From Thalia democratica (Eukaryota): a stretch of 64,000 nt of DNA. Both the position numbers and the translations under genes were made by a program. The DNA is taken from NCBI GenBank assembly GCA_965202585.1, contig OZ241833.1, positions 3,658,001-3,722,000 on the forward strand, read 5' to 3'. How positions within the stretch are numbered: position 1 is the stretch's first letter; each line of letters starts with the position of its first letter. The notes beneath the pieces were generated by a model. It worked only from the letters and a program-made list of their open reading frames with translations, made no database searches and had not been told where the DNA came from. This document shows, one piece after another, positions 2,156 through 57,949 of the stretch.

Positions 2156-3290
2156 GTTTGTTGAACTTTTTATTTTGTTAACATCACGTAATATAATTAT
2201 TTTAATTCATTTGTTTGGCTCATTCGTTTTTACATGTTAATAAAAACTTTTTTTTGTGTTAGTAGGTTTAGTATGAGTATTATTTGTACTTTGATTTGAT
2301 GAGTTAGGTTTAGAATAATTTTTGTAAAATATGTTCGTTCTTAGTATATGTTTAAAAGTTCCCTAATTTATAGTTAGTAGTTGTCAATTTTATAATGTTT
2401 TTATTTTATTTTTTGGTTCTGAGGTTTGCTGTTTTAAAAAAACTTAAATAGTAAACTTGTTAATTTACTTTAAATATTTTTTTTATAATTTAATGTTTAA
2501 CTTTTTTTTTGTAAATAAATAATAAGTACTTCAGTTCAAATAAGAAAATATTTTCATAATTGTATTAAAGAAAATGTTATATCTTTATGTTCTGAAGAAG
2601 AAGAGTAAAAGTAACGTTGTTGTTTTTCAATATATGTTTTTTGTTAATCTTACCTATATATATTCATAGAATATTGAAAAAATTCTAAAAATTTGTTAAA
2701 CTTTATTTCTCCACTATATGACTAAAAAAAATAATCTGTCATTTAATCTAGCAACCTTTTAAAGAACTCAATTGAACTATTTTAACATATTATAGATAAA
2801 CATTGTAAGACGTTAGTTTTCAATATTTAAGTCCTATTTAAGCTGTTTTTATTTAACCTTGTAATATTTCAAAACTACATTTTACACATTTAAATATTTT
2901 AATTTAACAAAATTATTAATCTAAAACTTTAAACATTATAAGAAAATTTATATTTAATTATTTAAAAAGTGCTTACTTGTGCATTTTTAAAAAGTTATTC
3001 AAAATAAAACTAGTTTTTTCAGGCATTGAAAGCACGGCATAAGTTTGAAAAAGGTTTAATTAAATTAGTTCACCTACTAAACTTTTGCTTTGAAAATTTT
3101 TACATCAATAGATTGTGTCAACAACTTGTTTATCTTGTTACTTTGTTCAAATATAATGTTAGTTTTTCTTGTTGTAATTACACGCCTTTAGTCGACATCA
3201 ACATCAAAGAAACGATTACTTTACATAAAAAACTAAAGAATATATTTAAAAAGCTTGTGAGTTAAAAACAATTTTTTGTATTTTCCATAG

Positions 3291-3488
3291 GAAGTGATGG
3301 AGTACACCCGCCAACTTGACAGCACAAGACCAGTGACGTTCGCTTGCAACGCCGGTTCAGATCACGACATGGCAAGTCAGTATTGTGACGTCATATCGGT
3401 GAACAACTACCAGTCATGGTACAACGATTACGGCCACACTGAGCTCATACAGGCGCGACTCACCGACTACTTTCAAAAATGGAATCAG
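3291..3488 (+). CDS. GUSB: Beta-glucuronidase internal exon, copy 1
   Basis: TTTTCCATAG acceptor, 198 bp phase 0, EVMEYTRQLDSTRPVTF...DVISVNNYQSWYND, CAG/GT donor. Confidence 0.9.
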
Positions 3489-3843
3489 GTTGGTTTTCAA
3501 AGAATTAGAAACATTTATAATGGCTTCAACTTGTTTAAATTTTTAGTATAGTTTTTTTTTAAGTAGTGGGTATAGTTGTTAACAAACTTATCATATTTAA
3601 ATCTTTAGTATTGTAATGCTACTGCATCACTTAAATCACATTATAGTTTAATAATTCTTTAAATATGTTTGATACATAGTTTAATAGCTTAATTGAAGCT
3701 GGAATATTACTTTAACAAAGTTGTTCAAAAAAAGAATTAGAACAAACCACTGAAAATGTATTATTTTCCAAGAACAAACGCATAAACTACATTTATTATG
3801 CCTGAGCAACACACCAAACCCTACATACAGTTTTATTTTGCAG

Positions 3844-4248
3844 AAATTGAAGAAACCGATAATCCTCACCGAATTCGGAGCCGGATCCGTCTCAGGATTC
3901 CACGCAAACCCGCCACTCATGTACAGCGAGGACTACCAACACGAGCTGATCCAGCAACACTTCGGCGTGTTCAAGCGACTGTGCACAATACAACACCCCT
4001 ACCTAACAGGATCCATGGTGTGGAACTTCGCCGACTTCCAGACCGCCCAAGGACCCAAGAGGGCGCAGGGTAACCGCAAGGGGCTGTTTACCAGGGACAG
4101 GCAGCCGAAAAGTTCAGCGCACTTGGTGAGGAGGCAGTACTTGGAGTGGAGGAATCAGTCCATTTGGGAGAAAACTACAGACAAGATTAATTATAAAAAC
4201 TTCAATTTGAAATACGAATTCGAGCGTGAAGTTTCTGTTATCAACTAA
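3844..4248 (+). CDS. GUSB: Beta-glucuronidase terminal exon, copy 1
   Basis: TTTTGCAG acceptor; KPIILTEFGA (nucleophile Glu), WNFADF, NRKGLFTRDRQPK (NxK motif of glucuronidases); TAA stop. Confidence 0.9.
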   Translation, partial: KLKKPIILTEFGAGSVSGFHANPPLMYSEDYQHELIQQHFGVFKRLCTIQHPYLTGSMVWNFADFQTAQGPKRAQGNRKGLFTRDRQPKSSAHLVRRQYLEWRNQSIWEKTTDKINYKNFNLKYEFEREVSVIN

Positions 4249-7735: not shown

Positions 7736-10700
7736 TTAGTTGTGTTTACTCTTAAATTTAGTTATTATGCAACATAAAGAGTTAAGACTATTTTTTGAAA
7801 CTTTACAAAAATAAAACTTTAGTTAATGTGTTTTCATGCAGTATAAAAGCTGTATAAGTTTTAAACTCCAAACTAACAGAAACTTTTTAAACATGTTAAT
7901 GAACTTATAATCACTTTTAAAACAATAAAAACAAGTTTTGAACATAAAAAGATAGAAAATATCAGATAGTTGAGTTTATATTTTAGAAGTTAGTAGATGC
8001 GACTGTGGAACGGTAGTGTAGCGGTTGAAGTCTGTGCGTTGAAAGCTAGCGATTTGGGTTACTTGTTGCTCATTTTTATTTAACTTGATATACTATACAA
8101 GTAATTTATAAAATTTACGCTTTCAAAAAGTTTCAATCAGAACTAAAATACAATTGTAATTATATTAAAATATACCAACTAGATCATTATTATTTATTAG
8201 TACTATATTCAGTCTTTATCAAAATAGATTCTTAAAACTAGTTTGCGCATTTTATCAGTAACCTACAAAGATATATAAGAATATTAAGCAAAAAACAATA
8301 CTTATCATCCATCTTTAGGTTTTTCGCTGTAAAATTTAAACTTTAAGTTTCTGTACTATTATTTTCATCTTAAAAAGAAGGATTAGTTTAATATGTCGAT
8401 TTTTACTTGAAATATGCAAAAATGACAACCTTAACTCTTATTTACTTTAATATTTCCAAAAGTACTTTTAAATTACTGTCGTTATGACTTAAAGTAAATA
8501 TTTTAAAAATGACTTATATTTATAAGCATTTTATAACAAAAAGTAGTAAAATTTACACGTACTTTGTTATTAAAGTTAATTAAAGCTTGGTAAATCCAAA
8601 TTTTGCTTAATAAAAAAAATTAAAACTTTTGATAAGCAAAACATTAAATAAGTACTTTTTTACTATTTGTTTTAAACAAAAAAAAAATCAAGTATTAAAA
8701 AGTATATTTGAGCTTCTTATGCAGCTTTTGAAAGGAAATTTTTCTCAAATATCAATATTTGCGTTAATGTTTTATGTAAAATGAGCAGCTTTATCTTCCT
8801 TCTAAGCTTATTTGAATGAAAAGTATAGTAGCCTTGTGTTAATAAACTAGTAATAGAAACTTTCAAAAATATAAATATAATCAAAAAAAGTTAAAAATTA
8901 TAGTACATAAATTTAAATTAAGATCTTAATTAAAACTCTAGTATATATCTGCTATTGATGACTGTGTTTCACGGTCTTTTAGCACCCTTCAAGCGCACAT
9001 TTTAGTTTACTTTGTTTACTCTGAAAGTAAGTTGTTTACTCTGAAAGTAAGTTTAAAGTATGAAATTTTACGTGTAAAACAATAGTATCATCATAGTTTA
9101 ATAATCATTGTTCAAATCCGGGGACTCGGGTTGGACTTACTTGTTGCCAGTTTTTTTTTGGTAACCTAAATTACCACACTAGTAACTTAAAATAAATTAT
9201 TATTTCACAAAGTTTCTATCAGAACTGAAATCTCTTTTGATAATACTTAAGTTTATAAATAATTTAAGTTTGTATAAACTTTTTCTTAAAGCTTATTCAA
9301 TAAACTAACTAAAAGTTTTAAACTTGAAATATTTTAGTAATATAAATAATAGTAAAAAGTATTTTACTGTACGTGCGCTAGTAACCTTGTAAACTTTATA
9401 TATTCAGTTTAAACATCAAGCTAAACGAGTTATGAGAAACCCCATAATCAAGCATAGAAAATATACTAGAAATTTAGATTAAATTGCAAATGAGATTAAT
9501 TCAAATTGAATAACGCAATTTTTTTTTGATAAAAATAAACTAATCATTAAAAGTAAAAAGTTCTGTTTAAACTAAAATGATTGTTTTTTCACATTGTTAA
9601 AAAATGAAGAATTATAAAAGATAAAATAAAACTTGCTGTTTTATTCCTAAAACTGTTAAATGTTTAACTAAAACTATTTATCATAGTTAAATTTAATTTT
9701 GGTAAAAACCATAATATAAATGTAATGTTTGAAATAATCAATTATTAAATAAAAAGGCTAACAACTTTTTAACAATGTAGTGATTTTATTTAAACTAAGA
9801 CTAAAATTAACTTATTATGCAAAACGTGTATAACTATAAAGTTTAAAGTTGTATATTGTTTTATTATATTTGGTCTTATTATCTTTATATGTTACAGTGG
9901 TAAAATTTCAAAATAATTTATATGTCAACTGAATGTTTTTTAAGTGCCATTGTTAGAAAAAACTCCAGCAAGCAATATTTAATAAAATTGGAAAAAAAAA
10001 GCAAACATTGAAAATTAGAATCATTTATTCATTTATGCACCAAACTATTTAGTTTATATTATCCACTTGAGCATTACTAAACTAAAAATTAAGCAGGGGT
10101 CGGCAATCCTTTATAAGTAAAAAAAATCTTACTACAAAGTGCAGCTCGATGGCTGCACTATGTAAAAAAAAAAGTCTTGAATTTCACAACATTTTACTTT
10201 TTCCTTGTTCTATAAAAGTAAAAACAAATAAATTTTTTGTACATATTAATTAAATCTACTTACACATTTAGTTCTTTTTTTGAATATTTATTATTTTTTG
10301 AGTTCTGGCATTTAATTAAGTTTTTTTTTTGTTAATTTGAGTTGTTTTCGGTATTTGAATTGCCATAAAACCAAAAGTTTTATTTAAGTAAACAATTCTA
10401 AATAAATGTTAGACAAAAATTTACAAATTTTTTAAATTAAGTATTACGGTGTGTTACAAAACCTTTTTTGTTCTTATAAGTATTTAAGTTAAAAAAAACT
10501 ATATGCTAAAAAGCGCAACACTTCAATTTTTTAAAATCGCATTTATGTGGAGTTTTTTATATTTGTTAATGATGCTTAAGTTTTATATATATTTTAGAAA
10601 AAAATATTTCTAAAACTTCAGTTTAAAGTTTTGTACAAATTATTATTTCGAGTTAAACTATAAGCTTTAATTCCTGATATGTAAAAATTAAAAATTTTAG

Positions 10701-11597
10701 GTGGTTTCCCTATTATTATTTACAAGCTAATTTTGGTGAAAATAAAGCATAATTTAATATTTACTAGCAATTCATAGCATATTACTTATTATTTATTAAA
10801 TTAACTAATAGTTACTACTAATCTTAATTAAATTCAGTACACATATAAGAGTATATTTTTAATTACTTTTATTTTATTTTTTAAATTCAAAGTTTACTTG
10901 TTTTTACCAAGTTATAAAAAGAAAAAAGTCATGGTGGTCCATATCTTCAATTATTTTAGTTGTGACACAAAATAAGTTTATTTCTAAAGCATTAAAAAAT
11001 TATTGGTGGAAATTATATTTACTTTAACTTCATTGTTATTAAATAGAATTTGTTTTTATATTTTACACATTCATTGTTAAAGGCCATGGGTGGGGAATTG
11101 ACAGTTTTAATTAAAATTTGTCTTAGTTTAAAAACTAGCTGCTAGTTGTTTTTATTGCATCCTGATATTCAAAATAACTTTTGAAAAATATGAGTTTAAA
11201 TTTGATAAGTTCAATAGGTGTCTTCTGGAAGGCCATGCTTAAAAATGCTAAAAATACTGAGTACTTTGATATATGTTTCCTTTTACAGCTTTTTACATAA
11301 TCATTATGAAACCTTCGCAGTCTAATCTGTATTTCTCATGGAAAAATCTTATTTAGGAAATGTTTTTACCTTAAAAAAATTTTAGTCTTTTGAAAAAAAT
11401 CAATAATTTAAAACTTCATTGTGAATTGCTTACTTTTTATTCATCAAACTGTTAATCATGCAAGGAACATATCTTTAAAAATTTAGTTCTCTAGAGTAAA
11501 ATCCTTAGATGCAAGAGATATTTTTTAAGTTTAAAAAAATTAGTCACGACAAGTTGTTCTCTAAAATCTGTATTACAAAAATTTTTTATAACTGACT

Positions 11598-12085
11598 GAA
11601 GCGTGGGGCACATGTACGACCTCCACGTGAAATTGTTGGATGGCGACGAGTACCAGCTGCCGGTTGGTATCAGGTCGGTGCGGGTGGACGGCACCAGGTT
11701 CCTCATAAACAACCGGCCCTTCTACTTCCTGGGCGTGGGCAAGCACGATGACTGGGTGACGAGGGGGAAGGGTTTCGATTGGTCCTCCGTCGTCAAGGAC
11801 TTCAACCTGCTGGAGTGGTTGGGGGCCAACTCGTTCAGAACCTCCCACTACCCGTACAGCAAGGAGGTGATGCGGATGTGCGACGAGCGGGGCGTCGTCG
11901 TCATCGATGAGTGCCCCGCCGTCGGCATGAAGTACGAAGAAACGTTCAGTGACGTCACCATGCTGCACCACAAGGCGGTCATGCGTGAAATGACGTCACG
12001 GGACTACAACCACCCGTCCATTGTCATGTGGTCGGTTGCCAACGAGCCCAAGTCGAACACTGAAGCGACTGCAAATTATTTTAAA
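11598..12085 (+). pseudogene. GUSB: Beta-glucuronidase exon, copy 2, 5'-truncated but in frame
   Basis: Open frame GHMYDLHVKL...GIRSVRVDG...WSVANEP. The upstream PKLWW part of the exon is absent. GT donor at 12086. Confidence 0.85.
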
Positions 12086-13180
12086 GTTTGTTGAACTTTT
12101 TATTTTTTTAACATCACGTAACATAATTATTTTAATTCATTTGTTCGGCTCATTTGTTTTATTTTTTTTTTGTTAGTATGTTTAGTATGAGTATAATTTG
12201 TACTTTGATTTGATGAGTTAAACTTAGAATAATTTTTGTAAATCATAGTATATTTTTGATAGTTCCCTAATTTATAGTTAGTAGTTGTCAGTTTTATAAT
12301 GTTTTTATTTTATTTTTGGTTCTGAGGTTTGCTGTTTTAAAAAAACTTAAATAGTAAACTTGTTAATTTACTTTCAAATTTTTTTTATAATTTAATGTTT
12401 AACTTTTTTTTGTAAATAAATAATAATTACTTCAGTTCAAATAAGAAAATATTTTCATAATTGTATAAAAAAAATGTTATATCTTCATGTTCTGAAGAAG
12501 AAGAGTAAAAGTAACGTTGTTGTTTTTCAATATATGTTGTTTGTTAACCTTACCTATAGTTCATTGTATAATGAAAAAGTTCTAAAAATTTGTTAAACTT
12601 TATTTCTCCACTATATGATTAATAATCTGTCATTTAATCTAGCAACCTTTTAAAGAACTCAATTGAACTATTTTAACTTATTATAGATAAACATTGTTAG
12701 ACGTTAGTTTTTAATATTTAAGTCCTATTTAAGCTGTTTTTATTTAACCTTGTAATATTTTCAAAACTACATTTTACACATTTAAATATTTTAATTTTAC
12801 AAAATTATTAATCTAAAACTTTAAACATTATAAGAAAATTTATATTTTATTATTTAAAAAGTGCTTACTTGTGTTTTAAAAAGTTATTCAAATTAAAACT
12901 AGTTTTTTTCAGGTATTAAAAGCACGGCATAAGTTTGAAAAAGGTTTAATTAAATTAGTTCACCTACTAAACTTTTGCTTAGAAAATTTTTACATCAATA
13001 GATTGTGTCAACAACTTGTTTATCTTGTTACTTTGTTCAAATATAATGTTAGTTGTTCTTGTTGTAATTACACGCCTTTAGTCGACATCAACATCAAAGA
13101 AATAATTTCTTTACATATAAAACTAAAGAATATATTTAAAAAGCTTGTGAGTTAAAAACAATTTTTTGTATTTTCCATAG

Positions 13181-13378
13181 GAAGTGATGGAGTACACCCG
13201 CCAGCTTGACAGCACAAGACCAGTGACGTTCGCTTGCAACGCCGGTTCAGATCACGACATGGCAAGTCAGTATTGTGACGTCATATCGGTGAACAACTAC
13301 CAGTCATGGTACAACGATTACGGCCACACTGAGCTCATACAGGCGCGACTCACCGACTACTTTCAAAAATGGAATCAG
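13181..13378 (+). CDS. GUSB: Beta-glucuronidase internal exon, copy 2
   Basis: Same AG/GT boundaries and translation as 3291-3488. Confidence 0.9.
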
Positions 13379-13736
13379 GTTGGTATTCAAAGAATTAGAA
13401 ACATTTATAATGACTTTAACTTATTTAAATTTTTAGTATAGTTTTTTTTTTTAAGTAGTGGGTATAGTTGTTAACAAACTTATCATATTTAAATCTTTAG
13501 TATTGTAATGCTATTGCATCACTTAAATCACATTATAGGTTAATAGTTCTTTAAATATGTTTGATACATAGTTTAATAGCTTAATTGAAGCTGGATTATT
13601 ACTTTAACAAAGTTGTTCAAAAAAAGAATTAGAACAAACCACTAAAAATGTATTATTTATCAAGAACAAACGCATAAACTATATTTATTATGCCTGAGCA
13701 ACACATCAAACCCCTACACACAGTTTTATTTTGCAG

Positions 13737-14141
13737 AAGTTGAAGAAACCGATAATCCTCACCGAGTTCGGAGCCGGATCCGTCTCAGGGTTCCACGCAA
13801 GCCCGCCACTCATGTACAGCGAGGACTACCAACACGAGCTGATCCAGCAACACTTCGGCGTGTTCAAGCGACTGTGCACACTCCAACACCCCTACCTCAC
13901 CGGATCCATGGTGTGGAACTTCGCCGACTTCCACACCGCCCAAGGACCCAAGAGGGCGCAGGGCAACCGCAAGGGGCTGTTTACCAGGGACAGGCAGCCG
14001 AAAAGGTCAGTGCACTTGGTCAGGAAGCAGTACTTGGAGTGGAGGAATCAGTCCATTTGGGAGAAAACTACAGACGAGACTGATGATAAAAACTTCAATT
14101 TGAAATACGAATTCGAGCGTGAAGTTTCTGTTATCAACTAA
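13737..14141 (+). CDS. GUSB: Beta-glucuronidase terminal exon, copy 2
   Basis: KPIILTEFGA, NRKGLFTR, stop; paralog of 3844-4248. Confidence 0.9.
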   Translation, partial: KLKKPIILTEFGAGSVSGFHASPPLMYSEDYQHELIQQHFGVFKRLCTLQHPYLTGSMVWNFADFHTAQGPKRAQGNRKGLFTRDRQPKRSVHLVRKQYLEWRNQSIWEKTTDETDDKNFNLKYEFEREVSVIN

Positions 14142-16701
14142 CTTTTACTTTAAATATTAAATAATTTTGTTTTTGAATTGTTAATCATATCTAATAACAA
14201 CTTAAAAAATTTTATACAGTCATTTTTTAGATTTTTTTTTATTACCTTATGTATTTTCTTAAAAATGCTGAAATAAAGTCCACCGTGTTATATGATTTTA
14301 AGTTTACAATTTTCTGTTGTCACTGTTTTTTTCTATCATTTTGAATAACCTTCTGTAATAACATTTTAAAATGATTAAAACTTCCTAGGTTGTTTTATGT
14401 AATTGATTTATTGTAAACTAGTTTTATAGTTTTTTATTTAAAACTAAATAAGCTTCGTAAAAGTTTTAAAGGTTTTTTTTTCTGTGAATAATTATAAAAA
14501 CGACTGAAATAAAAGTGACATTTTGTATTATTCAAATCATTTTTGTTACGAAACTTAATAATAAAAGTCACTTATCGCTTCATTAACTTAATTAAGTTTT
14601 ATCTTTTGTTTCGATTAAACAGACAGTACTACTAATTATGATACTGAAAATTTTACTAAAAAAGTTGACCCGTTACTTTTAAATGGGTGGCAACCCTAAT
14701 ACAAATAAACTAAATTTATAATAATTTTTTTACGTAATTTTTACTTTAAACTTAAAACTATTTTTTTTTAAATCAAAATAACATTCAAAAATCCGAGTAA
14801 GGACTTAGTTTAAACAAGTCTGAGGCCTTAAAATTTCACTTATTTTTTATATTTTTTTAGCTCTTAGTTTAAACTAAATTACTTTAAATAAAAAAAGTAA
14901 AATAAAATCACTATTTTTGGAAAATCGAAAAGCTGTACAATAATTAATTAGTAGTATTCCCGGATGAGTAATACTCGTCTTTATAAAAATTATTCGATTT
15001 TATCCACTTTTAGTGTTAGTTTATTTGTCACTAAAACTTTTGGATGGAGATAATACAAGTTTAAACTTTTCTTAACGAAGATTTTAAATTGTATATCTAA
15101 GGGTTCACAGTTTATCCATAACTGGAGAAAAATGCTTTAAATTTTTTTCTTAAGAATTTAAGATCAAAAGAACCAGCTTTAAAGGAATTTAGGTTTGTTG
15201 CTTCAATTTGTCTATTACGTTAAGTAAACTTTTATGAGGCCGTTTGAGGATTGCTTAAATGAAGTTTTGAAAGTAATCAAAAGTTAACCGTGTGAAAAAT
15301 AAAAGATTATTAACAACCTTAATTTTTAAATGTTTAAACTTGTTTTAAATGGTTTAGAAAATTATATTTTAATTCTTTTTTAATAAATTGTTAGTTAAAA
15401 AGATACACTTTTAGCTCTTTTTTTTTTTAAACTACAAATGAATAAACTTATGTATATTTAGCACATTTTTCAGTCTCTTACTTGCCAAACTTTTGAACAT
15501 TAAAAAACAATAGAATGTTTGAAATAAAACTGAGGATAATTTAATAAACCAAAATAACTTATAAGTTTTGTAGGTAATTATAAAATAACAGACAACTATC
15601 ACCAGTTACTGTTTTTTTTGCAACTATGTTTTTCTGATATACTTATAGCCGGTTTACGGCAACCATATATTAATAGTTTTAATTTTATATAAAACATTTC
15701 ATAATTCATCCACTAAAAAAAAACTCGCATCTACTAAACGTCAAAATCAAAAAAAAATAGTTGAAATAAAAAGTGAATTTGTTTTATATTTAAGTAAACT
15801 TTAAAAGAATAATTTTCGTAAGAAAAAAAAACGCATAAAGCAAAAACTTTTTAGAAAGCAACTACTTTTGATAACTTTGTCCTATATTTTTTGTTTAAAT
15901 CAATTGATTTAGGTTTTGGCTGCATTAAAACTGTGTTTTAGAATTTATAAATATTGTTTTTTAATAGTTTCCTTTTTCTAGTTCCGCGCAATTTGCTTCA
16001 TGTTCAGTTAGTGTAATAAATTTAATCAATAAAATGAACAAAAGTTTTCAAATACAAACTATTCATTAATCTACAAATTAATCAAACAATCATTCTATTT
16101 TCATTATTGTACCTTGAGTATAGTCTGCATGATTTATTAAGTTAGTACTGAATAAAAAACATAAGTTTATTAATACAGTAAAACACCAAAATGTTCTTAA
16201 TTTCAGACACATTAATCATTTATATACAAACGTTAGCCTGTAAATGGATATTTATTTTTTGCTTGACTTTTACTTCTTCTGAAAATTATAAGTGATATAA
16301 GATAGGTATAAAAAAAAATTTAAGTATTGGTACATTTTGATTCAGTATTTATTTTTCAAAATTTATTACCTTAAGGTAATGCATTCTAAAATAGATATCA
16401 AAATGTTATGAATAAAAACTGAAGTTTTGAAAACTGTTAGTTTTTCACATAATTTTCAAAAATAACTGCTATACCACACTTTTTTGATATAACATGATAG
16501 TTGTTTGATAGACAAACTTATAAACTAAAAAAAAATGTTATTGTATGAGGTATTTGTCATATTTAACTTAAAGTACAAAAAAGCTTATCTACGCTGAAAA
16601 TTAACACATTTCTATGAATACAAGTATTTTGATGATCTAAATGATGTAATAGTGTTCAATACATTTTATAACTTTACAGCGTTAGTTTATTACCTCACAT
16701 T

Positions 16702-17205
16702 ATGGATGTCAGATTGCAGATTGATTGCACCGTAGTTGCTAAGAAGGTTGACGGATCTGATTACGTATTTCATGGAAGTCGTTCGGTCCACACCAAGTCT
16801 GATCAGCAAAAATGGGATCATTTGAAAAATAAATTAGTGGGTGAAGAATGCAAAAGAATTTTGAAAAAAATCATCAAAAAGTCTGATTCTAAATACAAAG
16901 ATTATTCCAAGAAAATGACTGAAGATGGATACACACATCACTGCATGGAAATGGGAGGTGGTTTTGTTCAACTCAAAGATAAAACTTTGCGCGGATCTTT
17001 GGGCAATTTAATCAACATGTTCTCAGTTGCTTGTCCGAAAGAAAAGGTGGCGAATATTTTTGTCAAATTGATATTCGATAACACAGAGATTCCTTCAACT
17101 GACAATGTTTCACTAACTGTCAATATGTCACCAACCGTCAATGTTTCATCATCTGACCATGTTACATCAACTGTCAATGTTACATCAACTGACAAAACGT
17201 CATAA
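16702..17205 (+). CDS. Hypothetical 167-aa protein
   Basis: ATG-to-TAA ORF, more GC-rich than its flanks, with an upstream TTTACAG acceptor-like site at 16680 and AATAAA near 17379. No motif recognised; S/T-rich TVNV repeats at the C-terminus. Confidence 0.55.
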   Translation: MDVRLQIDCTVVAKKVDGSDYVFHGSRSVHTKSDQQKWDHLKNKLVGEECKRILKKIIKKSDSKYKDYSKKMTEDGYTHHCMEMGGGFVQLKDKTLRGSLGNLINMFSVACPKEKVANIFVKLIFDNTEIPSTDNVSLTVNMSPTVNVSSSDHVTSTVNVTSTDKTS

Positions 17206-25476: not shown

Positions 25477-26109
25477 CAAATTAAAGGTTTTCTTGAAAAA
25501 CCGTATCCCACAGGCCATGGTGGAACTTCTACAACAGGTAGCGTAGTCAAAACTTTGCTTAACACCAATAATAGAACTCTGCTGACTAAGCATATTTCTG
25601 ATGTTAGTTTAAAAGAAAACATTAACAAAATTATTTTGTATGTTTCCATTATTTTATGGCCTATAAATTCTAACAGAAAAATTAATGTAGAGAAATACTC
25701 AGTTTTATTTCAAAAAACAATGATGCTGGTCATGTCGGTTAAATGGATTCGCTTTACACCAACTGCGCATACTGTTCTTGCACATAGTGCTGAACTAATT
25801 GAGCAAAACAATGGTAGAGGTTTGCTAAATTACACCAAAAGTGGATTGGAAGCTAACAACAAGTTTCTAAGACAGTACAGAATGAACTTTTCAAGGAAAA
25901 CTTCTCAGTATGAAAATTTAACAGACTGTTTAAATCGATTATGGGACTAGAATGACTACGATGTTAACAACACTTTAGACAGACTGAATTGCACTTATTG
26001 TAAAGAAGTCGGACATACTGCGCGAAGTTGTTTGCAGCTAAATGAAAAAATTTCATCATGTAGTTCAGAATGGGAAACGTTGTTACATATGCTTTGTACT
26101 ACTGAATAG
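25477..26109 (+). pseudogene. RAG1-like/Transib-superfamily transposase C-terminal region
   Basis: GHGGTSTTG, HTVLAHSAELIEQ, GLEANNKFLRQYRMNFSRK..YE...D.L..LW parallel RAG1 HKTLAHVPEIIER...GNESGNKLFRRFRKMNAR. In-frame TAG at 25948, then C-x2-C-x3-GH-x4-C at 25990-26031. Confidence 0.75.
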
Positions 26110-26389: not shown

Positions 26390-28340
26390 ACCCGGCTTGA
26401 AAGCGGCTCGAAACCGCTTAAAAGATTCAACATGGTTCTGATTCCAATGAAAGAGAAAGCAGTACACCCGAAAGATTTTAGACCTCTATACATAGGTTCA
26501 ATAATTAGGAGAGTGTTTTAAGGCATACTTAACGGGAGGATTGCAGCGATTAAGACTGATGAAGCACAGCGTGGATTTAAACCAGGAATAGAAGGATGTG
26601 TCATTAATCTTAGGATACTAGCGGAAATTGTAAAGAAAGCCATGAAAGAACTAAGAGGAATGTCAATAGCATGGATAGACCTAAAGAAAGCATTTGACTC
26701 AGTCAACCACTTGAAACTTATTTAAGTTCTGAATTCATCTGGAATACCGAGGAAGATTACTAGAATGATTACTAATATGTACAGAGGCAACACCTCATAC
26801 CTGAAAACTGGAGAACGTATCCCGATAGAAAAAGGAGTGCTACAAGGAGATCCAGTGTCGCCCACACTCTTCAATCTAGTTCTAAATGAGGCACTCAGAA
26901 ACTTTACAGGAGGATTACAATACGGACAAAGAAATCTACCGTATCTAGCATTTGCAGATGATTTAGTGATATTAGCAAATGACCCAAAGGAGCTTCAGGA
27001 ACAACTTAATCATTTAAACAGAAGATTGACCACATTTGGATTAGAAATAAACCCGGACAAGTGCAAATGTGCACATATCCAAATAAACAGGAAAACAAAA
27101 ACATACTGTATAGCAGTTAAGCCGAGGATCGTGATCAATAATTCAACAATACCGAGCTTAAATTCCGATGAAAATTATAGGTACCTGGGTATACAATTCA
27201 AGGCAAACGGTACGAGGGAATGTAAAACTGAATGGAGTATCGAGCTTGAGCGCATTGGAAAATCACATTTGAAGTCATACCAAAAATTAGAGGTATTAAG
27301 AAGACATCTTATCCCAAATGCGCCCATCACTGCAATGAGAGATATTGATTAACTTATAAGAACATGGGTAAGAGCATGGTTGCATCTGCCTAAAGACTTC
27401 CCGCCAGCAATGATTCACTTAGATATTATAGCTGGTGGATTAGGAATCAACAGGATTGAAGATACGACTATTAAAAGAAGAAACAAAGTCTTATTTAAAG
27501 GATGAAAGGAAGATATATGGATGATCGGGATGTGCAAACACTTTTGCAGTCAACGGAAGAGGATACTACTATTTTGAAAGATGACAGCGAGACGATGTAC
27601 AACACAAAAGATGGAAAAGGATTGAGGTCACATTTGAACAAGAGCGGTTACAAAAGTAGCTGGGTAAGGAAACCACCAGAAAACATGAAAGGAAGATATT
27701 GGAATGAGCTAATTCGAACTAGAGCAGGAGTGTTACTTATTCCAGCAAGGAAAGCGAGAATGAACAAAACTGAAGTTCCACCATGTGCGATTCGATGCGC
27801 AAGCAAGAAAACAAAACAAGTATATAGGGACACACTGAACCATCTTATGAGTAGTTGTGATATATCAAGGGCTCTAAGACAACAAAGACATGACAAAATC
27901 GTGAAGAAAATAGCGGAACACCTCAAGAATAATGGATATAAAGTAATACTGGAACCACTAATACCTAGTAAGCCGAAAAACAAGAAACCTGACATAGTAG
28001 CATACCACAAGGAGAAGCATAAAGTACTAGTTTGGGATCCAACAGTTGTAGGGGATCTTGGAGATCTTGAAGAGGCAGAAAATGCAAAACAGGAAAAGTA
28101 TGATGTTGAAGATGTTCATAGTTGGTTGAGAGGTGAATTACCGAGTAATCCAAAATATGGTTCCAGGCTGTTAGAAATGAGCTTTGGAGGAATTGCCTTA
28201 AACTGGAGAGGAGCTTAGAGTTACTATAGTTATCATCTGTTACATAAAGTGGCAGGAATGACGAAAAAGAACATCGAGCTACTGTCAATAATTGCATTGG
28301 AGGAAAGCCACAGGTTATGGCGTATATGCTATAGGGATTA
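26390..28340 (+). mobile_element. 5'-truncated R2-like (RT + CCHC + restriction-like endonuclease) non-LTR retrotransposon, family 1, inactivated
   Basis: DFRP, QRGF, DLKKAFDSV, GVLQGDPVSP, FADDL, C..C...HLMSSC, RHDKIV, KPDIV...WDPTV...EKYD; stops and frameshifts. Confidence 0.9.
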
Positions 28341-32230: not shown

Positions 32231-34199
32231 ACAGCGATGTCTGTGTTAGAAGACAAAGAGAAGAGAGAAAAATAGAGTTTTTTCGAACTATATATTAAAA
32301 AACAGCTTTTAGTTTCAGTCTTAAAAAAAAAAAATCATATCTAATAAAAACCAATATTATGTATAAGAACCATTACTAGTTGTGCAAGATTAACAAGTTG
32401 CAATGGTAAAATTTTAATAAAAATGGTTTATTTCAAATGTCTAATAGTTTTATTTAAAATTTTAAATTTAATAAAATAGTTAGCAAAAGTTATTGTTTGT
32501 TATTACAAACATTATTATTTAAAAAAAACTGAGATACAGATGAAATAGCTCAGCTACTCGATATAAATGACAATATCAGCTATTTAGCTAGAAAAATGTG
32601 GCAGAATTGTGCAACAGAAAATTATGAAATTTAGATAAAACTATGCAATATGTATTATGTTTGTAAAAGTAACTTTTGACATCCAGTTTTAGTAGTATAT
32701 GAGCACAGAGGCACGAGGCGGTGATGGAGAAGCTTTGGGACTGTTACGATCGTACCGGCGGGGAGCGTCAGGTGAGTACGGAGCAGACTTCATACTGTTC
32801 GACCCACAGGGGTTCGGACTGGCCGTGAGCGTCGCAATTGTGGATTTGGAAATGAACCTTTGTGAAGTTAGAGACCGCCTCTACGGAGAAGAGGAGTTGG
32901 TGTACGCGCACGGCGCCGATGAAGCTTTCTTCCTGGTCATGAATGATCGAGGAATATGGGCGAAAGACAGCCGGTCCGACTTGAAGAAGATCGGCTTGGA
33001 AAAGTCAGTTCACGATCTATTGTCAGTTGAGGTCTTGGCATGGACCGCCAAGATAGTTGCGTATTGGAATCGCAACCCGCGAACCCACAGGATGCCGACG
33101 GGAAAGTGGACGCTAACGTCAGTTTTGCTTCATTTTTTAAAATGCTTATTTAAAACGCTTTAGTGTTCATTGTGAAAAAGATATTTTTATACTTATCAAT
33201 AGTAACACTATGTGAAAAGAATTACTTCAAGTTGTGCAACAGTTGTTTGCAGAAGCTGAAATAGTAAATTAAATAATGTACTGTTTGTTATAAAGCTGTA
33301 ACCTTAGATACTATTTAAACATGGTGACACAGTAAAAGTGAATATAATAACTTTCAGATATTTCTTTGTCCGTAAATATACACAGCTATTTGTTGGAGAA
33401 AATTCCCGCTTTATTTCTGTTCTACTCTATTCAGAAGCACAACTAAAATTCCAAACAATATTTTTTTGCTGGAGATGATTTTGTGAATACTTGATACGTA
33501 ACTACGTACAAAAAAAAACTATACAAAAGATTTAGTAAAATAATGACTGACTGTGGAGGAGCACTAATACTATCTCGGGACCGAACTGCATCCTGAGGGG
33601 AGCACGGTTCAAGTAAAAAATTAAAGGAAAGGAAAGTTACATATTTATTTAGACAAATCTAAAAGTCTTGACTATTGATTTATTTATGTAGGTAATTTCA
33701 GACAAGATACATGAATTATAATATTAACAAGTAAATTTATAGTTAAGAAACTATGTAATTATTATACTATCTTAAAAAAGATCTCTAAGCAGATTTAAAT
33801 AATTAAGTTTGTTTCGTTAAAATAAGAGCATTTTAGAACTATATATACTATAAAAGCTTTATGTCAATTGTGGCAAAATATGTTTTCATATTTTAAAGCC
33901 TTTTAAAGCATATATTTTGAAAAAACAGCCAATACCATTTATACTATCTGCAATGATAGTATTAAAAAAAGTACCTTTTCAACGCTTTAACAAAGTGACA
34001 GAGTTATATTAAATTTAACTATGGATCATCTTAAGCTTTATACTTAAGGTTTAAAACAATTTTAATATGTTGCTTTTTATTTTACAATAAATATAATTAG
34101 CCCTACCTTGAACACTGTGTATTTTTAAAGTTGATAGTTGCTGTAAATGTAAAACAAAAAAAGACAACTCAGTTATATTAATAAACGATAGCGCAGACA

Positions 34200-36628: not shown

Positions 36629-36742
36629 ATCAATTCAAATTTCTAAATGTGTGAATTTTTTCTTGTTTATGAAGAAAGGGTGTTTTTTATCTTCCAACAA
36701 AAAGGCAGAGGAGAAGTAGAGTGACGATTCTCTTTCAACAGT

Positions 36743-36755
36743 GGAGAAGAGGAAG
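36743..36755 (+). other. Polypurine tract directly 5' of the LTR
   Basis: GGAGAAGAGGAAG abuts TGTAAC at 36756. Confidence 0.7.
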
Positions 36756-37102
36756 TGTAACAGGATATCAAGTTGCACTTGATTACTGTTTAAATTTGGT
36801 TGGAAGTTTTGAGCTAAAAGTTCATTCAAGCGTTAAGAGAAAGCTGGCAAGGTCAAGTTTTATACTGATGCAAGTTTAATACAGTTGACAAAAGGAGAAA
36901 ATAAAGTGCAGACCAGAAACCCTGATGCAACATTGAGTTATGGAATGTTATATATAAGCTGATACAACAGACAGATGGGGAGATTCTAGCCACAGCCTGC
37001 TGCAGTAAACGTGATAATGAAGAATAGACATTTATATTGTTTTCTTGTGTTATATAAAGTGTTTTTTGATTAGTATTATTTTTATAAGTATTTCTTAGTT
37101 AC
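36756..37102 (+). mobile_element. Truncated LTR (first 347 bp), left arm of the viral cassette
   Basis: Starts TGTAACAGG, has TATATAAG at 36951, and is the reverse complement of 38655-39001 with about 3 mismatches. Confidence 0.85.
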
Positions 37103-37115
37103 TCCATATATATAC

Positions 37116-38374
37116 TCAATATTAGCCCATCCGAGCCTTTCCAGAGATTACCGGACTACGTGACCTCACGCATTAGATCCGTATCTTTCCCCAGCGGCCC
37201 TGCAGAAAGTGAAAGAACCACGTTGCTTAGTCAAGCTCGAGCTATCTGTTCTTTCTCACAGGGTGTCTCAAGAAGCCTCACGGTCTACGAGGGGGAGTGC
37301 CCTCCTATTTACTTCCCATCTCAGATATCTATCACAGCAGAAGTGGTTCTGTTCGCCAATGGCAACTTACAACCAGACCTGGTGCCCTATTTGCTGGGAT
37401 GTGTTATTATAGGTGAAGTGAGCGAGGAATCTGAGCTTTCCCCCATCATTTCCAAAGCCCTGGGGAATTGGATGTCCCTGCTCCCGATGACATGGGAGTT
37501 CCCCTACTGAAACGTCATCCTGAGATCAAAGAACAAGTAAAGGGAAAGTTTGAAGAAGCTCCCGAAGTCAGCTCCAATAGTGCCAGTTGGTGGGGGAAAG
37601 AAGCTCTTAAAGACATCGTTGAGTTTCTGATTTCCAACATAATCCTCCAAGATTCCATGATGGAAAGTAAGGTTTCGGCTCTTGATGATAGATTGAAGAA
37701 ACTGGACATATCCGACAACATCAAGAAATTGGGCTCTAAGAGACCTAGGATTCAGCAGGAAGAGTTTGTGGCCCATTTCTTGATAGGATTAGTTTCAAAA
37801 TCCCTTGGGGGGTTCACTGGAAAGTTGGCTTATTCCTTTGCGAAGAGGAAAGGCAATAAGGCTGTCAATGTCTCCAACATGACTGGAGATGAGAAGATGA
37901 TTCTTTCATTGATGGCTGCAGCTCATGCAAAGATGCTCCCTGACTTCGGGAGGGTGAATGCCATTTTCAAGAAAGTTCTCGAAGAAATCAACAACTTTAA
38001 AGATAAGTTCGGAAATCCTTATTGGGATTACACAAGAGTGCATTACAAAGAAGGGGCTCCAGAGAAAGAGTACATAGATGCCTTCACTTATGTTATGGGA
38101 AATCTAGGGGAAACACGAGTGTTAGAGCAGACAAATTCTACTCGCCAAATAACCAATCTCAAAGTCTATTAGCTGAATCAGACTATCGATGAACCAAAAT
38201 CAGTCAACTGCTTTCACATTGAACAATCCCAGTGCAACGATGGCAACTCCCGGTGGAAGCTTGTCCAAAAAAACCAACCAATCCCAAGTCAACTCGGCCC
38301 AAAGCAAGTTCGGAGGAACCGTTTCGCTCGCAAATCCCATCCCAAAACCGGTCTTCAATATTAGCCCACCCGAG
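37116..38374 (+). pseudogene. Candidate endogenous viral element: circularly permuted nucleoprotein-like gene (~407 aa when re-joined)
   Basis: Intron-less and more GC-rich than host DNA. Frames 37118-37490 and 37468-38172 join by restoring one C that is present in copy 2. ATG at 38189 leads in frame into the terminal repeat. YIDAFTYVMG resembles the mononegaviral N motif. Confidence 0.55.
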
Positions 38375-38381
38375 GACGCCA
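38364..38381 (-). other. Primer-binding site complementary to a tRNA-Asn 3' end
   Basis: Minus strand reads GGTTACA-AT-TGGCGTCCTCGGGTGGGC. Plus strand AGCCCACCCGAGGACGCCA matches 17/19 of the vertebrate tRNA-Asn(GTT) end AGCCCACCCAGGGACGCCA as recalled. Confidence 0.8.
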
Positions 38382-38383
38382 AT

Positions 38384-39001
38384 TGTAACCTACAGATGTA
38401 GGTACCTTTAATACTAAACTTAACTTATACTAAATAATGATACTAATAATACTTAGGCTACTCTATATAAAACTAGGCATGACATGAGTTAACATATTTT
38501 ATATAAAGAACAATTGCAAACACTAACAAATATGTAAAGAACATCAAATTAAGAAAATACTTTAAATGTGGTCAAAACCTTTACACAAGTTTTAATCTAG
38601 CAAGAATATACTTTAAGAATGTATAAAACAAAATACGAGTTAACTATTTAGAATGTAACTAAGAAATACTTATAAAAATAATACTAATCAAAAAACACTT
38701 TATATAACACAAGAAAACAATATAAATGTCTATCCTTCATTATCACGTTTACTGCAGCAGGCTGTGGCTAGAATCTCCCCATCTGTCTGTTGTATCAGCT
38801 TATATATAACATTCCATAACTCAATGTTGCATCAGGGTTTCTGGTCTGCACTTTATTTTCTCCTTTTGTCAACTGTATTAAACTTGGATCAGTATAAAAC
38901 TTGACCTTGCCAGCTTTCTCTTGACGCTTGAATGAACTTTTAGCTCAAAACTTCCAACCAAATTTAAACAGTAATCAAGTGCAACTTGATATCCTGTTAC
39001 A
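38384..39001 (-). mobile_element. Complete 618-bp LTR in 5'-LTR configuration (followed by PBS)
   Basis: TGTAAC...GTTACA termini, PBS 2 nt downstream, TATA box, and the PPT seen before the sister arm. Confidence 0.8.
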
Positions 39002-39669
39002 CCTTTTCAACGCTTTAACAAAGTGACAGAGTTATATTAAATTTAACTATGGATCATCTTAATCTTTATACTTAAGGTTTAAAACAATTTTAACATGTTG
39101 CTTTTTATTTTATAATAAATATAATTAGCCCTACCTTGAACACTGTGTACTTTTCAAGTTGATAGTTGCTGTAAATGTAAAACAAAAAAAAAGACAAATC
39201 ATTTATAACGATTAATGATAGTGCAGACACAAGCTGCATCTAGAACCATTGGGTTAAAGAATGATGAAAAATATGAATGGTCTGTTCAAAACAGAAAAGA
39301 CAATTGGGATAAATGGTTTCAATAACAATTTTCACTTTAAAAACAAATTGGATCAGGAAGGTGCCCCTTAGTTGTTGGTAATACCAGAGGAAATGTGAAA
39401 CCAGAGTACTGTCCATTCTTCCAAAATGAAAAAAAATAACCGACGCAGTTAGCCATCCTGGACCACACAAACGCAAGATGCGTCCAAACAAAAAGACTAC
39501 GCACGATGAGACACAACAAGCTGCTAGACATGATGTCGTGCTAGATCACATGATAAAAGCCTGAAGCAGCAAAGAGTGGATGCTGAAAAGATACGTCAGA
39601 GAGCCTAACATTAAAGGGGAAGGGGCAATTAGAAACTGAAGCCCGATATACCCAGCAATCAAAGATATC

Positions 39670-54780: not shown

Positions 54781-55618
54781 AATGTATATTTAAAACGCTT
54801 TAGTGTTCATAGTGAAAAAGATATTTTTATACTTATCAATAGTAACACTATGTGAAAAGAATTACTTCAAGTTGTGCAACAGTTGTTTGCAGAAGCCGAA
54901 ATAGTAAATTAAAAAAATGTATTGTTTATTATAAAGCTGTAACCTTAGGTACTTCTTAAACATGGTGACACAGTAATAGTGGATATAACAACTATAAAAT
55001 ATTTTTTGTCCGTTAAAAGACACAGCTTAAGAGAAAATTTCCGCTTTATTTCTGCTCTACTCTATTTAGAAGCACAACTAAAATACCTAACAATATTTTT
55101 TTGCTGGAGATGATTTTGTGAATACTTGATAAATAAGGTACGTAACTATATACAAAAAATAGTATACAAAACATTTAGTAAAATAATGATTGACTGTGGA
55201 GAAGCACTAATACTATCTCGGGATCGAACTGCATCCTGAGGGGAGCACGGTTCAAGTAAAAAATTAAAGGAAAGGAAAGTTACATATTTATTTAGACAAA
55301 TCTTAAAGTCTTGATTATTGATTTATTTATGTAGGCAATTTCAGACAAGATTCATGAATTATAATATTAATAAGTAAATTTATAGTTAAGAAACTACGTA
55401 ATTATTATACTATCTTGAAAGATCTCTAAGCAGATTTAAATAACTAAGTTTGTTTCATTAAAATAAGAGCATTTTAGAACTATATATACTAAAAAAGCTT
55501 TATGTTAATTGTGGCAAAATATGTATTCATATTTTAAAGCCTTTTAAAGCATAAATTTTGAAAAAACAGCCAATACCATTTGTACTATCTGCAATGATAG
55601 TATTAAAAAAAGTACCTT

Positions 55619-55965
55619 TGTAACAGGATATCAAGTTGCACTTGATTACTGTTTAAATTTGGTTGGAAGTTTTGAGCTAAAAGTTCATTCAAGCGTTAAG
55701 AGAAAGCTGGCAAGGTCAAGTTTTATACTGATGCAAGTTTAATACAGTTGACAAAAGGAGAAAATAAAGTGCAGACCAGAAACCCTGATGCAACATTGAG
55801 TTATGGAATGTTATATATAAGCTGATACAACAGACAAATGGGGAGATTCTAGCCACAGCCTGCTGCAGTAAACGTGATAATGAAGAATAGACATTTATAT
55901 TGTTTTCTTGTGTTATATAAAGTGTTTTATGATTAGTATTATTTTTATAAGTATTTCTTAGTTAC
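55619..55965 (+). mobile_element. Truncated LTR left arm, cassette copy 2, preceded by target CCTT
   Basis: AGTACCTT-TGTAACAGG; near-identical to 36756-37102. Confidence 0.85.
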
Positions 55966-55987
55966 TCCATATTACTCCATTTATATA

Positions 55988-56731
55988 TTCAATATTAGCC
56001 CATCCGAGCCTTTCCAGAGATTACCGGACTACGTGACCTCACGCATTAGATCCGTATCTTTCCGCAGCGGCCCTGCAGAAAGTGAAAGAACCACGTTGCT
56101 TAGTCAAGCTCGAGCTATCTGTTCTTTCTCACAGGGTGTCTCAAGAAGCCTCACGGTCTACGAGGGGGAGTGCCCTCCTATTTACTTCCCATCTCAGATA
56201 TCTATCACAGCAGGAGTGGTTCTGTTCGCCAATGGCAACTTACAACCAGACCTGGTGCCCTATTTGCTGGGATACTTATATTATAGGTGATGTGACTGTT
56301 ATTATAGGTGAAGTGAGCGAGGAATCTGAGCTTTCCCCCATCATTTCCAAAGCCCTGGGGAATTGGATGTCCCTGCTCCCCGATGACATGGGAGTTCCCC
56401 TACTGAAACGTCATCCTGAGATCAAAGAACAAGTAAAGGAAAAGTTTGAAGAAGCTCCCGAAGTCAGCTCCAATAGTGCGAGTTGGTGGGGGAAAGAAGC
56501 TCTTAAAGACATCGTTGAGTTTCTGATTTCCAACATAATCCTCCGAGATTCCATGATGGAAAGTAAGGTTTCGGCTCTTGATGATAGATTGGAGAAACTG
56601 GACATATCCGACAACATCAAGAAATTGGGCTCTAAGAGACCTAGGATTCAGCAGGAAGAGTTTGTGGCCCATTTCTTGATAGGATTAGTTTCAAAATCCC
56701 TTGGGGGGTTCACTGGAAAGTTGGCTTATTC
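55988..56731 (+). pseudogene. Second, 3'-truncated copy of the nucleoprotein-like insert
   Basis: Near-identical to 37116-37836. It carries a +22-nt difference near 56268-56300 but is intact at the copy-1 frameshift. Confidence 0.6.
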
Positions 56732-56733
56732 TT

Positions 56734-56802
56734 ATTATTTAGTATAAGTTAAGTTTAGTATTAAAGGTACCTACATCTGTAGGTTACAATTGGCGTCCTC
56801 GG
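56734..56802 (+). mobile_element. Inverted fragment of LTR 3' end plus PBS
   Basis: ...TGTAGGTTACA-AT-TGGCGTCCTCGG is the reverse complement of 38370-38438. Confidence 0.85.
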
Positions 56803-57121
56803 TTAAAGAATAACTAGTCTTTTAAATAACAGTTAAATATTACCAAGACACTATTTTACCCAAATAAGTTTTATTAGTGTATTACCTTTTATTTTGAAAG
56901 CAGTATTTATCACAATTTTATCTCACATTCCTATATTTTTGTTTTTTTTTATATACTGCATTTTATCTAGTAGTAGATTTAGAGAAATTTTACAACAAAT
57001 TGTGCATTTAATTTTTAAGAAGCAATACTCACATTTACTATATGCCCATTTAAAAGCCTTTGAGTTTGTACCTATAACCAGAATGAATAGGGGGTTAGGA
57101 AAACTAATAAGTCAAAATTGA

Positions 57122-57290
57122 ACTGACTAAATTATTGTCCAAAAAGTCAAAGTAGTTGTGATAAATATATGAACAAAAAGTCAAAACTGCACTGACAAAA
57201 TTATTGTCCAAAAAGTCAAAGTAGTTGTGACAAAATTATTAACAAAAAGTCAAAGTTGATATGACAAATTTCAGTAAAAAAGTCAAAATA
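57122..57290 (+). repeat. Degenerate ~33-bp tandem repeat (AAAAAGTCAAA core, 5 units)
   Basis: The core motif recurs at ~33-bp spacing with alternating unit variants. Confidence 0.75.
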
Positions 57291-57949
57291 AAAAAAACTA
57301 ACAAGGTATAAGTTTAAATAAGTCTTAAAAGTGGTGACTAATTTTATTTGAAAGTGAGTGATATTAGATTTATCTAAGGCTCTTAAATCTTAATAGCACA
57401 ATAAAAAAAGAAAATATTTATTAATAACTAAGACAGCAAAGACCAGTAACATGCTGAAAATTTTTGGAGTTTGTATTATAGGGGATTATTATATTAATGA
57501 TAGTGCAGACACAAGCTGCATCTAGAACCATTGGGTTAAAGAATGATAAAAAATATGAATGGTCTGTTCAAAACAGAAAAGACAATTGGGATAAATGGAT
57601 TCAATAACAATTTTTACCTTAAAAAACAAATTGGATTAGGAAGGTGCCCCTTAGTTGTTGGTAATACCAGAGGAAATGTGAAACCAGAGTAGTGTCCATT
57701 TTGCAAAAATGGGAAAAAAAATCGACGCAATTAGCCATTCTGGACCACATAAACGCAAGCTGCGTCAAAACAAAAAGGACTACGCACGATGAGACACAAC
57801 AAGCTGCTAGACATGATGTCGATCACATGACAAAAGCCTGAATCAGCAAAGAGTGGATGCTGAAAAGATACGTCAGAGAGCCTAATATTAAAGGGGAAGG
57901 AGGCAAGGTGGAACTCAAGCCCGACATACCCAGCAATCAAAGATATTTA

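Follow-up and report, generated by a model that had tools for sequence, protein, structure and literature searches.

A probable product of aberrant reverse transcription in Thalia democratica: inverted LTRs of a retrotransposon around a captured and permuted coding sequence

The window analysed here is a stretch of 64,000 nucleotides of Thalia democratica DNA (assembly GCA_965202585.1, contig OZ241833.1, positions 3,658,001 to 3,722,000 of the forward strand). It is AT-rich and animal-like, and from about 30 to 61 kb it is occupied by an array of ~4.3-kb units, which are fragments of decayed non-LTR retrotransposons. Pieces of an LTR retrotransposon and of a captured coding sequence are embedded in this array at two places. 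At the first place, the match to the array stops at 36628, before LTR-linked DNA at 36629-36755. Neither gag nor integrase was found among the 23 ORFs scanned with Pfam (out of 72 ORFs of at least 100 aa in the 64-kb window), gag-pol is absent from the window, and the arrangement of an intact element, two full direct LTRs around gag-pol, does not occur in it. Searches for tRNA genes and Rfam families within the 64 kb were likewise negative. The features of the locus are the following.

33971..33984, plus strand: target site without an insertion, in a paralogous unit of the array
36629..36755, plus strand: 3' part of the element's interior (127 bp, not array DNA), single copy in the window, ending in the polypurine tract (PPT)
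36756..37102, plus strand: the "left arm", U3 sequence (LTR 1-347) from a 3' LTR that is truncated
37103..37115, no strand assigned: 13-nt filler; in the second copy the arm is followed by a longer variant with a local duplication
37116..38184, plus strand: captured coding sequence, middle and 3' part (putative second pass); right boundary approximate
38185..38374, plus strand: captured sequence, 5' part (putative first pass), with an ATG at 38189 and 62 open codons
38364..38381, minus strand: 18-nt copy of the tRNA-Asn 3' end at the position of a primer-binding site (PBS), 2 nt past the LTR; the final 11 nt are shared with the insert
38384..39001, minus strand: complete 618-bp LTR, TGTAAC...GTTACA, inverted and the sole complete LTR in the window
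39002..39005, plus strand: one of the two CCTT copies of the target duplication; the right flank of array comes next
55615..55618, plus strand: the second CCTT of the target duplication, with the left flank of array before it
55619..55965, plus strand: U3 1-347 at a true target junction, with CCTT directly before it
55988..56731, plus strand: partial copy of the captured sequence, matching 37116-37835 with 7 substitutions in 715 columns
56734..56788, plus strand: R-U5 (LTR 564-618), identical to the full LTR over 55 nt
56791..56802, plus strand: 12-nt PBS, probably the element's own; it agrees with the first 12 nt only of the 18-nt PBS copy in copy 1
56803..57486, plus strand: probable untranslated leader of 684 bp, AT-rich, not array DNA, containing tandem repeats of 34-35 bp

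The two inverted arms, 36756-37102 and 38655-39001, are 347 bp long and differ at 3 positions. A third copy lies at 55619-55965. The sequence TGTAACAGG or its complement occurs in the window at 36756, 38993 and 55619 only. On the minus strand the right arm extends to 38384 and gives a full LTR of 618 bp with a 6-bp terminal inverted repeat. The polypurine tract, 13 purines at 36743-36755, abuts the TG of the left arm; a comparable purine run with at least 5 G precedes 43 of the 64,000 window positions. This tract and the 127 bp of non-array DNA upstream of 36756 indicate that the left arm belongs to a 3' LTR and does not mark a site of integration. Compared at the level of sequence, the arms are pieces of the 618-bp LTR and their outer ends are U3 ends, because the PPT adjoins one copy and, in the full LTR, the opposite end is succeeded by a tRNA PBS. 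A 348-bp MITE or solo LTR was rejected, as the GTTACA at LTR 343-348 is internal and has no PBS after it.

Three motifs in the complete LTR were assigned by consensus patterns that we assume to apply: a TATA-like box at 38469 (LTR 533), an initiator A at 38438 (LTR 564), and ATTAAA at 38412 (LTR 590), which we take to be the polyA motif. Taken together they are consistent with a coherent U3-R-U5 layout. Of the TCA[GT]T initiators, only the one with its A at LTR 564 lies 25-35 nt downstream of a TATA-like box; a broader initiator consensus fails to single it out. That LTR 347 might be the 3' end of the RNA was considered and discarded, the promoter and polyA motifs being situated at LTR 533-595.

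Read along the minus strand from 39001, the complete LTR is followed by 2 nt and then by the 18-nt tRNA copy, and this assembly is, as far as its order of parts tells, the structure of plus-strand strong-stop DNA. In such DNA, 18 nt is the established length of the tRNA copy. The stop of plus-strand strong-stop synthesis at tRNA A58 is referred to in PMC3832253. The 18-mer agrees at 16 of 18 positions with a published tRNA-Asn PBS, the foamy virus sequence printed in PMC4261875 being the reference; the next-best match on both strands of the window has 13 of 18.

The coding sequence between the arms is demonstrably permuted as it lies in the DNA, its 5' part being placed after the middle and 3' part. 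The last 20 nt of 38185-38374 repeat 37116-37135 with one mismatch and in the same frame. The 3' end of the tRNA 18-mer accounts for eleven of these 20 nt, and the remaining 9 are insert sequence. The tRNA tail thus matches the insert site at 10 of 11 positions, the mismatch being a G.U wobble, and identity with the insert continues 9-10 nt past the tail (9 in copy 1, or 10 when compared with the second copy). Nowhere else in the body of the insert does the tail match with one mismatch or none; 31 of 3000 shuffled sequences contain such a site. Nucleotide 13 of the PBS is G in copy 1, as in the tRNA, A at the insert site and T in the second copy. A tRNA origin of the tail is suggested by one diagnostic base, on the assumption that 56803-57486 is the native leader. 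With an RNA:RNA proxy for pairing, the full 18-mer binds the element slightly better than the insert (-27.1 and -24.0), whereas the last 8 nt considered by themselves favour the insert (-16.1 vs -6.1 for the element). A template search for the 13-nt filler gave none. The coding sequence of copy 1 is broken by a frame break near 37483 and an in-frame stop at 38170.

The second copy has the looks of the 5' end of the same cDNA, and its parts would be, in order, U3, the filler junction seen also in copy 1, a partial insert of about 720 nt, R-U5 and a 12-nt PBS which begins 2 nt after the R-U5 piece. The LTR piece begins exactly at LTR 564, the predicted transcription start. Such a start fits a minus strand that left the RNA at its 5' end and then jumped to a PPT-primed plus strand. 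The second copy is also broken, by a 22-nt local duplication near 56274 and by truncation at 56731.

The target of integration is recorded by CCTT at both junctions and by the empty site at 33971, which occurs again at 43804 with one additional T and in diverged versions near 47870 and 52103. Two junctions separated by 16.6 kb, together with the empty site, give the reconstructed duplication, and its length is within the 4-6 bp usual for LTR elements. The chance that two unrelated junctions would overlap by 4-6 bp at a homologous site of the ~4.3-kb unit is ~3/4300, which makes one staggered cut the likely source of both. The junctions alone allow a duplication of 4, 5 or 6 bp. It was set at 4 bp because the LTR ends are defined independently, by PPT and TG on one side and by CA, 2 nt and PBS on the other. 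A 6-bp duplication was rejected: the PPT-linked arm also begins with TG, and CA precedes the PBS spacer. The target context is ACCTTT and the target is not palindromic. The element is probably an LTR retrotransposon of Ty3/gypsy type primed by tRNA-Asn. We take the 4-bp duplication as a suggestive hint of Ty3/gypsy affinity; the coding region is missing from the window.

These results change part of an earlier note on this DNA, which had described 36756-39005 as a cassette integrated by two U3 ends. The inverted 347-bp arms, the CCTT at both junctions and the empty sites were found as it had reported. The U3 nature of the outer ends is upheld by the placement of PPT and PBS, but the LTR is 618 bp long and not 347 bp, and the 4-bp target duplication owes its length to the LTR ends and not to the junctions. 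Two target-junction ends exist, at 39001 and 55619; the third end, at 36756, is preceded by internal DNA of the element, so that 36756-39005 must be abandoned as the integrated unit. The idea that an aberrant reverse transcription product with two U3 termini served as a substrate of integrase outlives this unit and, given the 4-bp duplication, is most probably correct.

Based on these observations, we postulate that the structure descends from one aberrant reverse transcription product, made in a particle of the LTR retrotransposon that also held a foreign mRNA. We give this reading a probability of about 0.65. The anatomy is plain from the DNA, and the order of events would have been as follows. 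The starting molecule would be the plus-strand strong-stop DNA, whose complete LTR, 2 nt and 18-nt tRNA copy are preserved. Its 3' tail would have been a poor fit to the element's 12-nt PBS and leader; it would have paired instead with the foreign RNA (10 of 11 positions), and reverse transcriptase would have extended it there. As the permutation suggests, the enzyme would have reached the 5' region of the RNA, jumped to the 3' region and copied back to within 9 nt of its start. It would then have switched onto the genomic RNA of the element in the middle of U3, at U3 347, and continued through U3, PPT and the interior. A strand of plus polarity that is extended on sense RNA becomes a minus strand, and the LTRs are thereby inverted in a single step. 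At the 5' end of the RNA the minus strand would have been accepted by a PPT-primed plus strand consisting of U3 and part of the insert, with the chimeric 5' LTR at 55619-56788 as the result. After second-strand synthesis both termini of the cDNA would be U3 ends, and integrase would have inserted it with duplication of CCTT; two U3 termini fit a duplication of 4 bp.

At a later stage the interior would have disappeared, and the halves would have come to flank 16.6 kb of array in permuted order, a step that lies outside the account given by the model. The permuted halves may reflect a circle that was excised and reinserted, a duplication with two deletions, or a concatenation of haplotypes in the assembly. 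The number of template switches counts against the model, since at least four are needed. Several of the component steps have precedents in the literature. Dead-end, tRNA-tailed plus-strand strong-stop DNA builds up in Ty3 particles (PMC5371799), and hybrids between LTR elements and viruses arise by copy choice (PMC6797480). The integrase of Rous sarcoma virus (RSV) gives concerted products from a U3-only oligonucleotide in vitro (PMC10209032), which makes U3-U3 integration enzymatically plausible.

The relation between the two copies could also be explained by genomic duplication of one insertion, through unequal exchange or concatenated haplotypes, with later trimming by deletion and end-joining. 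The LTR origin of the arms and the capture at the PBS would be the same as in the model above, and the junction at 56731-56734 would be a product of DNA repair. Short local duplications at the junctions and inside the second copy do resemble end-joining scars, and the outer breakpoints lie near the homologous target site, ~930 bp before and ~200 bp after it. The right flanks of the two copies are mutual nearest paralogues (5.1% difference, vs 8.1% and 10.1%); this is what duplication predicts, and it would weigh against the model. The left flanks are not (27/817 to another unit vs 44/823). By homologous alignment, the left array flanks of the two copies differ by 3.9% and the right ones by 5.1%, and the inserts at 9 of 1062 columns (0.85%). 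The flanks therefore diverge 4-6 times more than the inserts and are not twins from a recent duplication, and two ends of a single cDNA are a better reading of the halves than duplication of a unit. Duplication does not predict that an LTR piece should start exactly at the cap-site motif, and it would still need a longer original insertion to explain why one copy has a PPT and the other a target junction. We regard it as unlikely. Far less probable are two independent insertions of one LTR family in opposite orientations at homologous sites, made by a site-specific integrase and later rearranged, with no U3-U3 event. Target-specific Ty3/gypsy integrases exist, and if the same staggered cut received an insertion in the opposite orientation, the junctions would be identical. 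The target is, however, not a palindrome, the insert and the breakpoint at U3 347 are common to both ends, and the minus-strand LTR is followed by the 18-nt tRNA copy and the captured sequence, not by a leader.

The earlier note had further likened the cassette to a vehicle with terminal inverted repeats (TIRs) akin to Ginger transposons, and a non-autonomous DNA transposon of this type, or a newborn one, with 347-bp TIRs and a viral gene, was weighed as well. Ginger1 and Ginger2/Tdd have TGTNR termini, long inverted ends and a 4-bp duplication, with which the present termini and duplication agree, and recombination between the two direct repeats of ~1.07 kb could in principle yield a CCTT-flanked unit of 2.25 kb. 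TGTNR is, however, also common to Gypsy LTRs. Ginger1 duplicates CCGG or CCGT and Ginger2/Tdd prefers RTATAY, and CCTT is none of these. The arm of 347 bp exceeds the published TIRs (40-270 bp in Ginger1, up to 297 bp in the table for Ginger2/Tdd; all Ginger data from PMC2836005). The arms here are LTR pieces with a PPT linked to one of them and U5 and a tRNA PBS at the end of the other, and no transposase, second target site or intact copy was found in the window; a CCTT-cassette-CCTT copy, which the earlier note had proposed to look for, is absent from the 64 kb. The comparison with Ginger is thus not borne out, and as an explanation of the locus we consider it very improbable. The structure is dead as a mobile element and represents a single event, not a new mobile family.

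In our estimate, the captured sequence is probably an mRNA for the nucleoprotein of a negative-strand RNA virus, a very divergent one similar to the mononegaviruses, although its likeness to a mononegavirus nucleoprotein is confined to a partial motif. The sole relative of the ORF at 37435-38172 is P0001, encoded by a 1757-nt contig, with 67% identity over 55% of the query and an acidic tail; a profile scan of 1.84 billion representatives recovered P0001 only. Paramyxovirus nucleoproteins (N) carry a motif F-X4-Y-X3-aromatic-S-aromatic-A-M-G, as given in PMC2577636. The ORF agrees with it at 5 of 8 defined positions, which 172 of 20,000 shuffled sequences equal, for a motif that was chosen after the sequence had been seen. 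The match is at residues 213-222 of the ORF (~residue 374), a relative position similar to that in paramyxovirus N. A hand-made motif with 0 of 200,000 shuffles was set aside in favour of the published pattern, having been fitted after the fact.

It is possible, though doubtful, that the mechanism operated as proposed on a cellular or other non-viral mRNA, and that the insert is an LTR-mediated retrocopy. Such retrocopies of cellular genes are known (PMC5470649), and no known viral protein was matched in any search. The earlier claim of a viral gene is plausible, but viral identity was not established by database search. Pfam assigned no family to the ORFs between the arms, sequence searches of the PDB and longer-protein searches gave no match, and Atlas gave no usable one. 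Leads in Atlas to the fungal DUF6589 scored below 0.9 and were disregarded. Two AlphaFold models of the captured protein, made with regard to the bilobed helical fold of N, had a mean pLDDT of 35 and 41 and were unusable. A Foldseek search of viral structures returned no match at E<=0.001, and we do not count the bornavirus nucleoprotein that it ranked tenth (E 0.89) as evidence. A scan of prokaryote genomes confirmed 0 of 69 pattern matches and thus gave no prokaryotic relative. The single relative among so many representatives and its small contig argue against a cellular origin, as do the N-like motif, its position and the acidic tail of the relative. The base composition points in the same direction: the insert has a GC3 of 0.47 and a CpG observed/expected ratio of 0.52, vs 0.84 and 1.02 in one host exon.

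The IAP-LCMV recombinant (Geuking et al., via the review PMC3205384) and the vDNA hybrids and non-retroviral endogenous elements (nrEVEs) formed with Ty3/gypsy and Ty1 elements in Aedes resemble the present case in that non-retroviral RNA was joined to LTR DNA by template switching and integrated. They differ from it in that here the switch would be primed by a tRNA tail and directed by homology, the cargo is permuted and the LTRs are inverted; recombination in the Aedes hybrids was apparently not driven by homology (PMC6797480). Chuvirus-Pao elements (PMC7642597) may be likened to it as recombinants of LTR elements and viruses, and so may the recombination of host RNA in retroviruses (PMC4997597). 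In LTR-mediated retrocopies (Ty1/Derr and metazoan retroCNVs, PMC5470649), reverse transcriptase also switches at chance similarity and the product is flanked by LTRs. These LTRs are direct, whereas here the polarity is reversed and both termini are U3. The dead-end plus-strand strong-stop DNA of Ty1 and Ty3 is likewise an LTR with a copy of the primer tRNA that is not used in normal transfer (PMC5371799); Ty3, however, copies 12 nt of the tRNA and not 18, and in the present case the product was extended and integrated. DIRS-1 shares inverted long terminal repeats with the structure, but DIRS elements use a tyrosine recombinase and not a DDE integrase, and a target duplication, a tRNA PBS and a PPT are present here. 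No tyrosine recombinase ORF was found in the Pfam scan of the window ORFs. Among the literature titles and beginnings of abstracts that were covered, most subscription journals being outside the scope, capture primed by a tRNA tail with inverted LTRs is not described.

The structure can be regarded as the genomic fossil of a copying error of a retrotransposon, in which the junctions record to the base how an RNA entered. LTR retrotransposons are known to insert sequences of RNA viruses into animal genomes, and the step at which reverse transcriptase jumps is rarely legible. Here the PPT, the cap site, the tRNA copy, the priming homology and the target duplication are preserved at less than 1% divergence. 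They point to a testable mechanism, the priming of capture by tRNA-tailed plus-strand strong-stop DNA, and to a natural case of U3-U3 integration. The case departs from the known capture process in how it was primed, in being permuted and in its inverted U3-U3 ends.

A tentative extension, which we think has clearly less than an even chance, is that tRNA-tail priming is a recurring and sequence-directed route to non-retroviral endogenous viral elements. If so, in LTR elements with a short PBS, the over-long tRNA copy carried by dead-end plus-strand strong-stop DNA would be a free primer for any co-packaged RNA with a matching site. As extension on RNA reverses the polarity, the products would carry inverted LTRs and two U3 ends acceptable to integrase, and their cargo would lie antisense behind an intact promoter as a source of antiviral small RNA. 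That some of these products collapse to TIR-like cassettes and are mobilised again as DNA by integrase is a highly improbable special case.

By the model, a countable signature is expected across genomes: a tRNA copy of 18 nt joined to cargo in antisense, together with an inverted LTR. The cargo of the present copy may mark a lineage of viruses with one known relative. At the locus itself there is one functional prediction, antisense RNA, because the minus-strand LTR is the only one to retain the core promoter; this intact promoter could at most drive antisense RNA through the insert.

The U3 portion of the LTR stops at LTR position 347 in both halves of the element, the two pieces that each carry a captured foreign insert. 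This common breakpoint falls in the sole internal GTTACA of the LTR (window 37098-37103, LTR 343-348), which mimics the U5 terminus, and the U3 portion ends one base before the last A of that motif. The position of the breakpoint at the internal GTTACA may be due to chance, or the motif may have served as a cryptic integrase site.

Repeats, mobile-element remains and open frames in the window.
1616-4248 and 11600-14141, glycosyl hydrolase family 2 (beta-glucuronidase-like) gene, two tandem copies
16672-17205, open frame of 177 codons, no family assigned, with an 18-bp tandem repeat at its end
25477-25950, fragment resembling a RAG1/Transib transposase (Pfam RAG1 at E 7e-4, which does not reach the curated cut-off)
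26726-28218, separate non-LTR retrotransposon, RT followed by a zinc knuckle and a KPDIV motif
30000-61460, array in which mosaic units of ~4.3 kb, composed of pieces of decayed non-LTR retrotransposons, follow one another in tandem
36767-36783 (LTR 12-28), putative short hairpin near one LTR terminus, spotted by eye, 7-bp stem
38389-38402, putative short hairpin just inside the U5 end, likewise spotted by eye, 6-bp stem
57109-57290, about 5 tandem copies of a 34-35-bp repeat, within the probable untranslated leader

The units of the array, which surrounds both halves, diverge from one another by a few to about 15%. In the separate non-LTR retrotransposon, the zinc knuckle and KPDIV motif after the RT are of the restriction-like endonuclease type.

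Both copies of the glycosyl hydrolase gene have GC-rich exons and AT-rich introns. Window positions 1-1147 and 10489-11634 are 99.4% identical.
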